Positions 23,526 to 56,389 of a stretch of 64,000 bases of DNA are shown in pieces. Positions within the stretch are counted from its first letter, which is position 1. Every line of letters starts with the position of its first letter. The DNA comes from a virus. Taxonomy: Duplodnaviria; Heunggongvirae; Uroviricota; Caudoviricetes. The notes under the pieces were generated by a model. The model was not told the origin of the DNA. It was given only the letters and a program-made list of their open reading frames with translations, and did not search any database. The stretch lies in the IMG/VR virus record IMGVR_UViG_3300045988_138358, one strand, 5' to 3'. A program made the position numbers and the translations under genes.

Positions 23526-23644
23526 TACCGATTTGATGCCTTATTGGCGTCTATCGTGTACCAGTGCAATAATGTGTCAAAGTGGTGCCATAATGGTGTT
23601 AATATACAGCCATATTGATATCAAATTGACACTGTATCGGCATC

Positions 23645-23669
23645 AAAAAGCCCCAGGCGGGGCTTTTTC
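23645..23669. terminator. bidirectional intrinsic terminator between the parA-RHH pair and dam
   Basis: GC hairpin flanked by A-run and T-run. Confidence 0.6.
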
Positions 23670-24577
23670 TATTTGAGCGTTGCAATGATATCGTTAGCGA
23701 CTATTCGCGTGGATGCTTTGCATGACACGGACCGTCTGGCTGGCATGTGGTACAGCTTAAAACCGTTTCTTTCGTACAATTCGCGAATTTTTGGCGCGCC
23801 ACTGTTTGTTATTACTATCTTTGCACCGCGCTGGTGGGCCGCCACCAACAGTGATACAAGCCGTTTTTGTTCATCGAAAAGGAAGCTATTTCCTGAATAG
23901 CTGGTAAATCCCTCTGTATCTGGCAGCGGCTCATACGGCGGATCACAAAAAATCACATCGTCTTCACCAGCCGCCTCGATGACACCAGCAAAGTCACCTG
24001 ATACAAAGGAAGTGTTTTTGAGTACGTCATCAGCCAAAAATGCCTTCATCTCTGCATGTGGGAAGTAGGGCGCTTTGTATTTGCCATACCCCACGTTGAA
24101 CTCGCCATTTTGGTTGTACCGCGTTACGCCATTAAAACAGTGACGATTAAGGTACAAAAATGCGGCAGCATGATGTAGTTGGTCATACTTTCCTCTGTTA
24201 AATGCCTCACGCACTTCGAGGTAAGCGTCAGCGTTGTTGTAATTTTTGAAAAAACTATATGACAGCGTGACGAGCGAATGTCCTTCTCGCTGCAATGTCT
24301 GATAGAAGTTAATCAGGTCACCGTTAATATCATTAAGCAGGTTGTGGCGAAATCCTGCATTCGTAAATACGGAACCGCCACCAACGAATGGTTCTATTAA
24401 CCGCTTACCGTGTGGTAGATGCTCAAGCACTGTAGGCAATTCTGAGAATTTACCACCTACCCATTTGAATATCGGACGCTCATATTCATCCGGAGTCCGA
24501 ATGGTGCGCATATAGCTAATTTCAGCCATCGTATCCTGTTTTTCTATGGCTATGCTTGCTATAGATTTACTCATAGA
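23669..24577 (-). CDS. dam: DNA adenine methyltransferase (Dam family)
   Basis: ORF track 23669-24670; FKWVGGK and DPPY motifs; ATG at 24577 (MSKS..) has AAGGGGG upstream, the track N-terminal extension is probably not translated. Confidence 0.8.
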   Translation of the reverse strand, partial: SMSKSIASIAIEKQDTMAEISYMRTIRTPDEYERPIFKWVGGKFSELPTVLEHLPHGKRLIEPFVGGGSVFTNAGFRHNLLNDINGDLINFYQTLQREGHSLVTLSYSFFKNYNNADAYLEVREAFNRGKYDQLHHAAAFLYLNRHCFNGVTRYNQNGEFNVGYGKYKAPYFPHAEMKAFLADDVLKNTSFVSGDFAGVIEAAGEDDVIFCDPPYEPLPDTEGFTSYSGNSFLFDEQKRLVSLLVAAHQRGAKIVITNSGAPKIRELYERNGFKLYHMPARRSVSCKASTRIVANDIIATLK

Positions 24578-25319
24578 GCACCCCCTTATTCGCTTCGAAA
24601 ACTGCCTTTGCGAATCCATGTGGAGTAGCACTTCGAAAATTAGCCCTGTCAGGCCCTGGTGGCGCGGCATGGATTCTGTTATCTGGCTTGCCTAATGATT
24701 CGTCCATTAGGGCATCAGGCATGACAAAGCCCTGGCCGCTCCAGAGGCATGTTTTTTTTGTGTAGTTATCTTCCTGACAATATGCAGTGAAGAAGTAAGG
24801 GTGAAAGATGTGATCTGGCTTACGCCAGAATGTCGATATTTTGCTGACCGGATTTTCAATCATGTACGGACAACCGATCATCTTTGCAATGTCATAACAC
24901 TGCCAGACAACCTGCATTGCTTTGAACTGGAAAACCGGATCTTTATTAGCCTTGTCCGAAAACCAGCGCGCGCCGGAAACAGCCAGGTCAGTACACGGTG
25001 GGAACCCGGCCAGAAACACGATGCGCTGCAAATTCTTACGGAGAAAAGCGTATACTTCATCGCTATCGATGATCGCACTAATACGCGTCAGAACGGCACC
25101 TGATTGCATCCGCTCGTCACTGGTCGATAAGTGCTGTGGATCGACGATAGCGGCATCGACACCGTATTCCAGCCAGGGGGCAACCATTGCCCCCGTAAAA
25201 TCACAAAGACTCACAACAAGCTGTCGGTTATTATCGTTCTGCTTCACCGCCAATGGCCTCCACCAGCGCGTTAAACAGTGCAGATAATTCGCCCGTAAAG
25301 AGCACGAAATCAGCATCAA
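24567..25319 (-). CDS. C5-cytosine methyltransferase-like protein, short
   Basis: ORF track 250 aa; motif IV-like GFPPC and ENP; too short for a complete C5 enzyme; overlaps dam start. Confidence 0.4.
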
Positions 25320-26136
25320 ATCGTTGTGCTACATCCTCCCGGTCGATATCGTCGTTCTGGTCATAGAGATCATCACAGAATGTCAGGGCTTTGATACTCA
25401 TATCATCGTTGACTCTGAACGACGCACGGTCCATCCAGTTAATTGCAACGGTCGTAGCTACTTTCCCCGCCTCAATGTGAGACATAATCTCGTCGGACTG
25501 TAGATCAACTTTGTTGCAGCGAACGGCACCACCATTATCGAGCAGACCCTTTAATGTGGCGTCTTCACCTGCTGTAAATCCGGCAGGGAAGCCGCTTTTA
25601 AACCACTCGGTCATTGTAATTTCCAGCGGTTCGCGTGGTGTGAATGGAATGACAGGCAGGCTGCCGAGCGACTTTCGCAATAAAGCCAGCTGGTCCTCTG
25701 CCTTTTTGGCGCTGCTTGCCTCAACGAATACCAGATGGTTGCTGCGGTCGATCAGGATTTTGGCGAGTGATTTTCTCGTGAACGCGCGAGGCAAAAGTGA
25801 ATGCAGGACTTCATCTTTAAGACTGTCTCTTTCCGTTTTCTTCAGCTTGCGGGCTTGCTCTTCTTCGAGTTTCAGGACTTTTTTCTGCAACTCTTCCTTG
25901 AGCACCTGCGAGGGGAGAATTTTTTCTTCTCGCTTATGCTGTATTAGCAGAAAACCCTGGTATTCATGGGTGAGGTTGTCACCAAGAACAGGTGTCCAAC
26001 CGACTTTAGCTGTGTCCTGAGAACCGCAAGGAGTAAACACGAATTTGCTAAGAGCATCGGATACTTCTGCGGCACTCCAGTTAACTTCACGTGAAAGACG
26101 ATAGATGAAGATGTTTTTGAAAGCGACTGATCTCAT
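25231..26136 (-). CDS. rdgC: recombination-associated protein RdgC-like
   Basis: ORF track 301 aa; N-terminal pattern matches RdgC as I recall it. Confidence 0.6.
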
Positions 26137-26143
26137 GTTTCAC

Positions 26144-26185
26144 CAATTGTGTTAGAAAATTCTATTCAATTATCTAACACAATTG
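26144..26185. promoter_or_regulatory. operator-like perfect inverted repeat CAATTGTGTTAGA-N16-TCTAACACAATTG
   Basis: 13-bp perfect arms, 16-bp spacer, ends ~8 nt upstream of the rdgC start. Confidence 0.6.
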
Positions 26186-26195
26186 GATGTGTTTT

Positions 26196-53516: not shown

Positions 53517-55025
53517 TCAAATATCCAGATCTGGCATTTCTACATCTGCAAGAACCTGATCGCGGAAGGTAGCCATTTCAGCGCCGATATCTTCATTAGC
53601 AGGAACATAGTCCACCAGCATTGTAAAGCAGTAGGTATCCCATCGGTCAGGTGATTTGATGTTCAGCTTTTGCCGCATGTGCTCCTTGCGCATCATCGCC
53701 ATCTTCCCTTCTTCATTAAGTAAAAAGGGGATTTTTGACGCTTGCTCTGCCGTTTTAGGGTCGCTGTCTATTCGCATACGACCTGACTTTATGGCATCAC
53801 GAGCCATAATATTTGCGTAGGCACGCTGGTTAACAAAACGCTCCTTGTCTTTGTTCGAAAACATGGGTTTCCCCCACCGAATCCGTACCGGATTAGCCCC
53901 ACGGCGCACCAGCTGCGCACAGGTATCTGAACCAAAACCGTCTGCGTCAACCGCGATTGTAATATTCGGGTATTTATCCGGCGTGCATTCGTTGTATATA
54001 AAGTCAGCAAAAGCCAGCGGGTCCATAGTCCCTGGCATTTCCATTACCTTAAAGTTAACAACACGCCGCTTTTCCCGGTGACCAGACACTTTACAGATAT
54101 TAAGAACTGACTTGTCTCGCCCGTTACCAACGTCAGCAGTAGCCACCCATCCCCAGTTTTTCTCCAACAACACCTTGCGCCGCGCAGCGCGATCGCATTC
54201 ATCACGACCAAGCAAATAGCCGTTAATCTCCCGAGGAAACTGACCAAGAACCTTGACCATGTACTCAATAGAATCGCGCCCGCCATATTCTAGGAGTTTC
54301 TGCCTGATGAATTGTGGTGTGACGAACGGTGATTCTTCTGAGTTAAGAACAATTGCTGTCCAGATCCCTTTCGGGTTGTCTGGGGTTTTAGCTTGAGAAT
54401 GGTGCGAATCGTAGAAATAACCACTTGGCCTTGTTGGCTGGGATAGCATCAACATTCGGTTATCTTCTTCAGTCAGAGCGCCAGTCATTACGCCGATCGC
54501 TTTATCAGATATACCTGATGCTTCATCCAGAATTAGAAGCAAATGTGCCGCGTGCTCCCCCGCCAGAGCTTCTTCGTTACCGAGTCGATAGCCTTTGCAG
54601 AGAACTTCCCAGATCCCCTTTCGAGAGCGTTCATAAAACATGGTGTCAGACAGGACAAAATAGGTCTGTAACCACCCATGACGCTTAACGGCATTCGCCC
54701 AATACTGTTTAACGTATTTGAATACACCTGTCTTAACCTGACCTATTTTGTTAGCAACAATGATGACACGGGCATCGGGGAACAGAATCAAATAAATCAG
54801 CAACAACATAGCCGTTAGCGACGATTTCCCTGTACCGTGACCAGAGGTAACAGTGGTTCTGCTCCCTTTTTGCTGTACGGACTGGATAATCTCCTGCTGC
54901 TGGTGGGAGGGAAACATCCCGAATATATCAACAACAGCCTGGGTAAAGTTGTAGCGGTATTTGATTACCATATCGCGCCAGCGTGGATCGCTGGTGACGC
55001 ATTTAATCTTGCGCCCACCAGCCAT
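53517..55025 (-). CDS. terminase large subunit (PacB-like)
   Basis: ORF track 502 aa; intact Walker A SGHGTGKS and Walker B ILDEAS; start overlaps upstream stop (TAATG). Confidence 0.8.
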   Translation of the reverse strand: MAGGRKIKCVTSDPRWRDMVIKYRYNFTQAVVDIFGMFPSHQQQEIIQSVQQKGSRTTVTSGHGTGKSSLTAMLLLIYLILFPDARVIIVANKIGQVKTGVFKYVKQYWANAVKRHGWLQTYFVLSDTMFYERSRKGIWEVLCKGYRLGNEEALAGEHAAHLLLILDEASGISDKAIGVMTGALTEEDNRMLMLSQPTRPSGYFYDSHHSQAKTPDNPKGIWTAIVLNSEESPFVTPQFIRQKLLEYGGRDSIEYMVKVLGQFPREINGYLLGRDECDRAARRKVLLEKNWGWVATADVGNGRDKSVLNICKVSGHREKRRVVNFKVMEMPGTMDPLAFADFIYNECTPDKYPNITIAVDADGFGSDTCAQLVRRGANPVRIRWGKPMFSNKDKERFVNQRAYANIMARDAIKSGRMRIDSDPKTAEQASKIPFLLNEEGKMAMMRKEHMRQKLNIKSPDRWDTYCFTMLVDYVPANEDIGAEMATFRDQVLADVEMPDLDI

Positions 55026-56389
55026 TAGTCATCCTCCGGCGGTTCTATCGCAATATCATCATCTCCGGCGTCATACCCTGCATCTGATGCATCATAATCA
55101 CCGTAAATTTCAGCCGTTGCCGAAGGGTCAATGTCCAACTCTTCATCGTTGGCCTCGAATTCCCCAGCCTTACGCTCGCCATTGTGGTCGTAATCTCCGC
55201 ACCCCAGATCTTCAACAATGGTTGCCACATCCGCCCGGCGCTCTGCCAGCCATTGCGGATGGTTAGCCTGAAGCGATGCAAACTCCTTCGCTTCTTTGTC
55301 CAGCTGTTCATCATCAACATCATTGATGTCAGAAACTGGAGGTTCGAGAAGAGTGATAGCTTTCGCCGCGCGCGCCGCGAGGATAGCCGGGACACTGACA
55401 CCCTGACGCTCGATGTATTCAGCAACACCGATATCGTCCAGCTCCTCGCGCTCACGCATACGTATAGCGGCGGCGATAACTCTGGCTGCGCGTGCGTCAG
55501 CGCCAATGCGATATTCAATCTCTTTGCCACGCTGTTCGGCCTGTAGGCGTGCTAATTCGAGTTTTTCTCTGGCCTCGGCCTCTCTGAATGCTTGCTGGCG
55601 AGCACCCTGACGAAGTTTTTCATCACCCTGTCGCAGCTTTTGTTCGGACTGATATATCGCTGCCAACCTACTGATAAAATCGTTCATGTAGTAGGCCGCG
55701 TCACTGATTAGACCGAGAAGTCGCTGCCCAGGGTGCATTCCTTCTGGCTGTTCATCACCCAGGGCGTCTATCTCCGCCTGTAGGCGTTCGGCCTCCTGAT
55801 CAACAATGCTTTGGTACTGAAGTGCGCGTTCTTGCGCCATTTGAATTGCTAACCGCAGGTGCTCTTCTGCGCCGTTCTTCATCATGTCGCGAGCCACACT
55901 CGTAGTGGGCAACGTGGCACGCTGCACAGCACCGCCAGGGATCATTGCTGAAGATCCCTCGATTTTTGAGGCGCATTTATCTTCGGTGGGGATCATTTTC
56001 GCCATTTTTTCGCGCAATGATCTCCTGACAGATTCTTTTATCTCATTGTTATTATTTGCATTATTTTCATGATCCGAAGTTTTCTTTCTCGGCATACTTC
56101 GGAAAGAACCTGTGCCCTGCGAATTGTCAATTTCTGTAAATTTTGTTGTTTCTGTACCCTCTTCTGGTCTTTTTTTTGCTCTTCCTGCCCGTTTTTTTTG
56201 AGGTGATTTGGTGCTTTTTTTTGTAGTCTTCACCTGCGACCGCACCTCATTTTTTTTCATATTGAGATGCTTTCTGGCGGTATTGAAGCTAAGGTCGTGT
56301 TGCTCGCAGTATTCCTTTACGGTGATCCCTTTTTCTTCACGCAACGCTATAAATTTGGCGCGGTGCTCTTCCCAATTAACCAGACTCAT
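55025..56389 (-). CDS. terminase small subunit-like (PacA-like) protein
   Basis: ORF track 454 aa; N-terminal HTH-like segment, acidic C-terminus, coupled to the large subunit gene. Confidence 0.5.
   Translation of the reverse strand: MSLVNWEEHRAKFIALREEKGITVKEYCEQHDLSFNTARKHLNMKKNEVRSQVKTTKKSTKSPQKKRAGRAKKRPEEGTETTKFTEIDNSQGTGSFRSMPRKKTSDHENNANNNNEIKESVRRSLREKMAKMIPTEDKCASKIEGSSAMIPGGAVQRATLPTTSVARDMMKNGAEEHLRLAIQMAQERALQYQSIVDQEAERLQAEIDALGDEQPEGMHPGQRLLGLISDAAYYMNDFISRLAAIYQSEQKLRQGDEKLRQGARQQAFREAEAREKLELARLQAEQRGKEIEYRIGADARAARVIAAAIRMREREELDDIGVAEYIERQGVSVPAILAARAAKAITLLEPPVSDINDVDDEQLDKEAKEFASLQANHPQWLAERRADVATIVEDLGCGDYDHNGERKAGEFEANDEELDIDPSATAEIYGDYDASDAGYDAGDDDIAIEPPEDD
55940..56075. 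other. GATC hexamer cluster inside the PacA-like gene (candidate pac site)
   Basis: Five GATC within ~135 bp as GGATCA, AGATCC, GGATCA, TGATCT, TGATCC. Confidence 0.35.

Follow-up and report, generated by a model that had tools for sequence, protein, structure and literature searches.

We identified a cluster of three co-oriented genes, rdgC, a gene resembling those of carbon-5 (C5) cytosine DNA methylases, and dam, on the minus strand of a 64,000-nucleotide (nt) stretch of a Caudoviricetes genome (IMG/VR record IMGVR_UViG_3300045988_138358). This whole stretch is referred to as the window, and positions are counted from its first letter. The small Dcm-like C5-cytosine methyltransferase gene (24567..25247, minus strand) has a GTG start, encodes 226 amino acids (aa) and overlaps the 3' end of rdgC by 17 nt; it is followed by the gene of a Dam-family N6-adenine DNA methyltransferase (23669..24574, minus strand; 301 aa). 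The region is 97% identical at the nucleotide level to phage D6 (GenBank MF356679) and 99.4–99.7% identical to several E. coli plasmids of ~90 kb, and of 5426 complete E. coli genomes 100 carry it, every time on plasmids. We therefore take the window to be a D6-like E. coli phage-plasmid, and we are fairly confident that the locus is a DNA-modification module of this element, in which a stand-alone C5 methylase with little of a target-recognition domain (TRD) and a Dam methylase are encoded by coupled genes sharing a terminator. The pair as such is already known and ordinary, being annotated in D6 and belonging, on the cytosine side, to a family with a characterised member. Its equivalents in D6 are orf64, a 226-aa "putative DNA-cytosine methylase", and orf63, a 301-aa "site-specific DNA-adenine methylase" described as "similar to C-term half of P1 dmt only"; protein identity is 99% and 95%, respectively. 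The gene order after rdgC and the 8-nt overlap of the two genes are identical in D6 and the window, whereas the glnS gene that D6 carries just downstream of dam is absent from the window; apart from this, the two loci do not differ in any way that matters.

The boundaries of both genes differ from those in the program-made list of open reading frames (ORFs), which held two overlapping minus-strand ORFs, one at 23669..24670 with 333 aa counted from its first ATG and one at 24567..25319 with 250 aa counted from a TTG, their union being 23669–25319. The 250-aa ORF exists but is over-extended: homologues begin 7–10 residues before an invariant LCDxTG motif, and the conserved protein is therefore predicted to begin at GTG 25247, giving 226 aa as in D6. 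A putative Shine-Dalgarno sequence, GGAGG (25257..25261, minus strand), can be read within the 3' end of rdgC, 9 nt upstream of this GTG. The Dam ATG (24574–24572) overlaps the upstream TAA stop (24569–24567) as ATGAGTAA and stands 6 nt after the GGGGG within AAGGGGGTG. We regard ATG 24574 as the true Dam start, which gives 301 aa, and the overlap claimed in the original prediction is therefore real but 8 nt long (ATGAGTAA), not 104 nt. In the candidate translational-coupling junction (24567..24589, minus strand), AAGGGGGTG provides a putative ribosome-binding site (24587–24579) that is followed by ATGAGTAA, a geometry suggesting that the two genes are probably translationally coupled. In RefSeq records of D6-like plasmids (e.g. 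NZ_CP115379; locus L003, 2668–3288), the Prokaryotic Genome Annotation Pipeline (PGAP) has the small methylase gene encode a "hypothetical protein" of 206 aa that starts at Met21. This start removes the invariant LCDxTG, the conserved S-adenosylmethionine (SAM)-binding motif, and both the label and the start arise because the phage methylase family has no Pfam or NCBIfam model.

The pair had been read as a possible frameshifted or split bifunctional enzyme, and comparison with relatives speaks against this. In a set of 40 D6-like loci from IMG/VR (small protein 64–99% identical), the two ORFs are in different frames in every locus, with a stop codon and a frame change between them, the window included; same-frame or fused versions were looked for in these 40 loci and none was found. 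The sole start candidate common to the D6-like loci follows a conserved ribosome-binding site and precedes the end of the upstream stop by 7 nt. The junction reads ATGAGTAA in most loci and GTGGCTGA in the lineage at 83% identity, and the lineage at 64% has a 19-nt overlap. The Dam frame of the window does stay open upstream, as had been noticed, as far as 24691 (117 nt beyond the start), but this openness is not conserved: a stop shuts the frame in loci L091 (10 nt upstream) and L020 (39 nt upstream), and several relatives lack the ATG at 24670. Nei-Gojobori ratios of nonsynonymous to synonymous substitution rates (dN/dS) come to 0.06–0.09 for the small methylase gene and to 0.095 for dam, values that point to strong purifying selection on the two genes. 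Because the separate-frame arrangement is conserved, dam has its own start and ribosome-binding site, and dN/dS is below 0.1, we interpret the ORFs as two intact, functional and separately translated genes, with no frameshift between them.

The 226-aa protein matches phrog_757 ("DNA methyltransferase") at 3.9e-78 over residues 2–224. Clustering of this family gives at least 7900 clusters when identity is set to 90% and 1608 when it is set to 50% (E <= 0.001), nearly all members being stand-alone proteins of 200–260 aa, and the family occurs in 1591 phage records including those of T1-like, rV5-like and Klebsiella phages. C5-methylase-like motifs had been seen upstream of dam in the original prediction, and the protein does carry such motifs, LCDFTG, FPPCT, ENP and the C-terminal RSATPxGFAxAV, which are invariant or nearly so in homologues. 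Across 70 diverse representatives (33–50% identity), C85, E131, P133, P150, K164, T166, W169 and G211 are invariant and D16, D36, F82, P83, N132, R205, S206, T208, P209 and F212 nearly invariant. The order LCDxTG, D36, FPPC85, E131NP, YTK164K, RSxTPxGFAxAV mirrors C5-methylase motifs I, II, IV and VI and the C-terminal helix, with FPPC85 as the motif IV Pro-Cys that holds the predicted catalytic Cys and E131-N-P as the source of the motif VI Glu. A candidate counterpart of the motif I FxGxG is LCDxTG at the end of strand 1; its D16 varies little, whereas the invariance of its G19 is confined to closer homologues. Motif VIII QxRxR is absent, the strand reading YTKKTCLW with an invariant K164. 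No canonical variable TRD follows this strand at the position between motifs VIII and IX, where the distance to the C-terminal helix is only about 38 residues (172–209 of the structural model), most of them conserved. The remark that the protein is too short for a TRD was correct, but it holds for the whole family, including its experimentally active member.

The AlphaFold2 model of the small protein (predicted local distance difference test 81, predicted template modelling score 0.83) has a seven-stranded class I fold, with low confidence in the loop after PPC. The predicted fold is closest to that of C5 DNA methylases and resembles their catalytic domain. Foldseek agrees weakly (E about 1e-3, template modelling score about 0.45), and its top match is an rRNA methyltransferase. 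The window protein differs from canonical C5 methylases (M.HhaI, DNMT3A/B, the prophage Cp-933R enzyme 3g7u, and CmoX 8yf3) in having neither a PF00145 match nor QxRxR and in an identity to solved structures of only 7–14% (14% to 8yf3).

Experimental precedent for the family comes from phage K42, a relative of the BASEL phage KarlJaspers/Bas06 (doi 10.1101/2023.08.16.553469, 2023 preprint). In phages that had escaped retron Ec86, a 711-bp dcm gene was lost, and K42 Dcm alone was toxic in retron-bearing cells and triggered the retron (doi 10.1101/2023.08.16.553469). Expressed alone, K42 Dcm raised 5-methylcytosine (5mC) in the multicopy single-stranded DNA (msDNA) of retron Ec86, as measured by liquid chromatography-mass spectrometry against a standard, and the quadruple mutant C82A/E128A/K175A/K176A served as inactive control; a Dcm of this kind was encoded by 34 of 35 Ec86-sensitive phages (doi 10.1101/2023.08.16.553469). 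The KarlJaspers genome (MZ501090) carries the 711-bp gene bas06_0055, annotated as "Dcm-like C5 cytosine methyltransferase", whose product also belongs to phrog_757 (6.2e-86), is 236 aa long compared with 226 aa in the window, and is 37% identical to the window protein over its full length (BLASTP E 1e-41). All four K42 control residues are conserved, C82, E128, K175 and K176 aligning with C85, E131, K164 and K165 of the window protein. The KarlJaspers/K42 enzyme differs in that it comes from a lytic siphovirus (Drexlerviridae) in which Dam is not adjacent, a Dam-like gene of KarlJaspers lying ~6 kb from bas06_0055 on the opposite strand; the KarlJaspers protein has a 14-aa insertion before the YxKKT strand, and activity has been shown for K42 only. 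The family thus has a member that is an active 5mC methylase and works without a Dam partner, and the 226-aa protein most likely makes 5mC from SAM without a partner as well. The rRNA methyltransferase match in Foldseek, the lack of a PF00145 match and YTKKT in place of QxRxR could speak for an activity other than this or for a dead enzyme; 5mC formation by the K42 homologue, the family-wide invariance of the catalytic Cys and Glu, the identity of only 14% to 8yf3 and, as regards a dead enzyme, the strong purifying selection count against such a reading, which we consider unlikely. A literature search for nanopore methylomes of Drexlerviridae phages yielded only an unrelated paper on Druantia.

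Several family members depart from the compact form seen in the window. One subgroup (L020, 3998–4762; cluster representatives P0006, P0009 and P0121) has an insertion of ~28 residues between GFxMP and PDNRIH, at a TRD-like position; this insertion and the 14-residue insertion of KarlJaspers may be specificity-determining variable regions. P0121 (563 aa) is also the one representative in which the small family is fused to a Dam domain, by a linker of ~55 aa; a search for the DNA of this fusion gave nothing in genome contigs and only unfused D6-like loci (53–58% identity) in viral contigs. Other architectures are a combination of a Mu Gp48-like protein with the last third of the small methylase (P0264, 532 aa), a member with a C-terminal HNH_2 domain (P0189, 348 aa), and an RdgC C-terminus read through into the methylase (P0004, 305 aa), which is probably a gene-calling artefact at a contig end.

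The downstream gene had been called a clear Dam-family member, and the profile searches bear this out. Its product matches PF02086 at 1.2e-55 (189 bits vs a cut-off of 22) and TIGR00571 at 1.2e-73 (248 bits vs a cut-off of 114.85), aligns over its full length with the E. coli Dam structure 2g1p (E 1.3e-58), and shares with it the FxGxG and DPPY motifs, here EPFVGGGSVF (core FVGGGSV) and FCDPPYEP, for SAM binding and catalysis. With 237 vs 441 bits it stays under the equivalog cut-off for chromosomal E. coli Dam (NF008152), and we assign it to a phage-type subfamily and not to the chromosomal orthologues. It differs from E. coli Dam in an N-terminal extension of ~30 residues that would derive from the linker of Dmt, a bifunctional enzyme of phage P1. 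The window Dam shares 67% identity with its counterpart in P1 Dmt, which is annotated as GATC-methylating, and the 301-aa protein therefore most likely methylates adenine in GATC.

A GATC cluster in the PacA-like gene, with which the original prediction had connected this Dam function, is present as described: five GATC sites lie within 135 bp (55940..56074), the densest such cluster in the window, inside pacA/terminase (55025–56389, minus strand; phrog_1711 at 5e-178; 93% nucleotide identity to D6 pacA). In P1, a comparable GATC cluster governs pac cleavage. By analogy with P1, the cluster is a candidate Dam-sensitive pac site, and a link between it and the window Dam is plausible. Over the whole window GATC is slightly under-represented (218 observed vs 248 expected), and not all sites of the pacA cluster have the P1-type TGATCA/G hexamer.

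The slot occupied by the two genes holds a single fused gene in related elements. P1 Dmt (754 aa), encoded directly after hrdC (RdgC family), has PF00145 (1.6e-35) followed by PF02086 (2.9e-56), and its record describes a bifunctional enzyme that methylates GATC "and perhaps" C5 of cytosine. In some D6-like plasmids, one gene with PF00145 and PF02086 domains lies between rdgC and the terminator, encoding 718 aa in NZ_CP066033 (L114, 1190–3346) and 762 aa in NZ_CP074704 (L115, 2990–5278), with glnS, rdgC and the baseplate context in common. The fused D6-like gene is 69% identical to P1 Dmt overall and nearly identical over the first ~240 residues, and its Dam part is 91% identical to the window Dam. 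P1 Dmt and the fused D6-like allele thus resemble the two-gene locus in their position after hrdC/rdgC, their orthologous Dam moiety and their combination of C5-type and Dam-type modules, and differ from it in being one polypeptide with a canonical PF00145 C5 part of ~450 aa that includes a full variable region.

Nucleotide homology between the window and NZ_CP074704/NZ_CP066033 breaks sharply at Dam codon ~26 (query ~900, window ~24499), and residues 5–25 of the window Dam (IASIAIEKQDTMAEISYMRTI) align with the interdomain linker of the fused enzyme (LATVADKQQKTINTITYTRKL). Because of the shared context, the sharp breakpoint and the linker-like Dam residues 5–25, we propose that one locus can hold either of two cassettes, the two-gene arrangement or the fused gene. 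The exchangeable part (24499..25247, minus strand) would span the small methylase gene together with ~25 codons at the start of dam, and the separate Dam has an N-terminal tail that resembles a former linker. A cassette carrying the small methylase with its own stop and start would have replaced the canonical C5 domain, the former linker surviving as the Dam N-terminus. The idea of a split bifunctional enzyme was apt in that the pair sits where fused C5::Dam genes sit, and it fails in that the small protein has no detectable sequence similarity to the fused C5 domain: BLASTP and hhalign showed no similarity of the 226-aa protein to the C5 half of P1 Dmt or to the fused D6-like allele (hhalign probability 0.2 for the P1 Dmt C5 domain). 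An origin of the small methylase as a remnant of the C5 domain of the fused enzyme was considered and rejected on these comparisons. About 11 of the 100 matching E. coli genomes covered the two-gene region only in part.

These comparisons bear on two other explanations of the locus. The ORFs could be a recently frameshifted or mis-sequenced bifunctional C5::Dam gene, or be joined by programmed ribosomal frameshifting, as might be suspected from the 117 nt over which the window Dam frame is open upstream of its start, from the fused C5::Dam enzymes of P1 and some D6-like plasmids, and from the small-family::Dam fusion P0121 in the databases. The comparative data count heavily against a single gene and largely refute it: all 40 related loci, with identities as low as 64%, have the ORFs in separate frames, the overlap varies with lineage (8 nt, 19 nt) and each form has its own ribosome-binding site and start, stops close the upstream Dam frame in L091 and L020, and dN/dS is below 0.1 in both ORFs. 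The small family is moreover stand-alone at 200–260 aa in thousands of clusters, and the fused alleles use a different C5 domain whose similarity to the small protein is undetectable. We consider this explanation highly improbable.

Alternatively, the small C5 methylase may need Dam as a physical partner in the D6 lineage, with Dam targeting the TRD-poor subunit so that cytosine is methylated at or next to GATC. The short TRD-equivalent region of about 38 residues, the tight stop/start coupling with Dam across the D6-like clade and the repeated C5-Dam fusion in independent architectures (P1 Dmt, the fused D6-like allele, P0121) would all fit such a dependence. A survey of 80 viral loci encoding the small family, in which a Dam homologue was sought within 4 kb, found Dam directly downstream in 17 of 17 D6-like loci (>= 64% identity) and within 4 kb in none of the 63 more distant loci, and Dam adjacency is therefore a feature of the lineage and not of the family. 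In KarlJaspers, ~6 kb separates the two methylase genes, which are on opposite strands; plasmid expression of K42 Dcm by itself is enough to raise 5mC and to trigger retron Ec86, and the short C-terminal region is conserved family-wide with no co-variation with a partner. We thus regard a need for Dam as unlikely; of the earlier suggestion of a minimal cytosine methylase needing a partner, the minimal C5-like protein stands and a family-wide partner requirement does not, given the distant loci and the activity of K42 Dcm alone. A further and quite unlikely form of the same idea is that the C5/Dam linkage in three independent architectures (P1 Dmt, the D6 pair and P0121) reflects a functional complex. 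In it, Dam would position the nearly TRD-less methylase, and both enzymes would be needed for a composite mark at or beside GATC, for instance at the pac site.

Our preferred interpretation, two coupled genes for a stand-alone C5 methylase and a Dam methylase, also has points that weigh against it. The 226-aa protein has no match to any Pfam or NCBIfam model, including PF00145 and, for Pfam, even at E 10, and phmmer and two profile searches against PDB sequences returned nothing significant. The best profile match among PDB sequences is DNMT2 at a non-significant E of 0.16, in an alignment that runs sensibly from motif I to motif IV and sets LCDxTG on LYSGIGG. The only ties of the small protein to canonical C5 methylases are accordingly its predicted fold and its motifs. 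Both activities and both specificities of the D6-like pair are deduced from sequence, and the probable translational coupling is deduced from geometry only. The CCWGG target of K42 Dcm was assumed from that of the host Dcm, with msDNA mutations as the only support (doi 10.1101/2023.08.16.553469). Finally, physical links to Dam recur (P1 Dmt, P0121, the 8-nt overlap), which would be compatible with functional cooperation.

The cluster begins with rdgC (25231..26136, minus strand; 301-aa ORF), the equivalent of P1 hrdC and of D6 orf65 (RdgC family), which matches PF04381 at 5.1e-103. At its other end, a bidirectional terminator-like hairpin (23645..23668) lies between the end of dam and a convergent parA-like operon. 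It has a 10-bp stem, predicted energies of -15.6 kcal/mol on the minus strand (z -3.4) and -15.0 kcal/mol on the plus strand, and U-runs on both strands. A scan for consensus promoters and terminators gave fewer matches than shuffled sequence and overlooked this hairpin. In the window, the hairpin is all that separates the parA-like operon from dam (23526–23668), whereas D6 (L001, 2280–3941) and many D6-like plasmids carry glnS (glutaminyl-tRNA synthetase) between the two.

Directly upstream of the rdgC-dcm-dam cluster, in the spacer between a baseplate gene and rdgC, lies an inverted repeat, CCAATTGTGTTAGA, whose perfectly matching 14-bp arms are separated by 16 nt (26143..26186). As RNA it folds with -22.7 kcal/mol (z -6.4), and its end is 3 nt short of the ribosome-binding region of rdgC. 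Both arms co-vary among 33 related loci (CCAATTG to CCATTTG; CCAATTATG in L110), and since the arms change together, the repeat is suggested to be a selected hairpin or a dimeric operator ahead of rdgC-dcm-dam, with a candidate regulatory role. The P1 C1 operator consensus is absent from the 64-kb window.

Based on these features, we propose the following working model. Transcription would run across all three genes, from rdgC to dam, and end at their common terminator, and ribosomes finishing the small methylase gene would reinitiate at the overlapping Dam ATG, so that the two enzymes would be co-expressed. The small enzyme would transfer a methyl group from SAM to C5 of cytosine using its predicted catalytic residues Cys85 (FPPCT), Glu131 (ENP) and Lys164/Lys165, and Dam would methylate GATC, the five-site pacA cluster (55940–56074) being one target. 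The probable role of the module is self-methylation of the element's DNA and thereby restriction evasion and, for Dam, control of GATC-rich sites such as the pacA cluster. Its cost could be sensitivity to retron Ec86.

The consequences of these findings are modest and leave current understanding unchanged; the remaining interest lies in the missing profile models, the RefSeq mis-start and the cassette polymorphism. There is an annotation gap in that neither Pfam nor NCBIfam has a model for this very large phage family of small cytosine methylases. The fused and unfused alleles in one plasmid lineage provide a clean example of methylase-gene module shuffling. The family that includes the trigger of retron Ec86/Eco1 is carried by phage-plasmids in about 2% of complete E. 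coli genomes, and these elements may interact with that defence.

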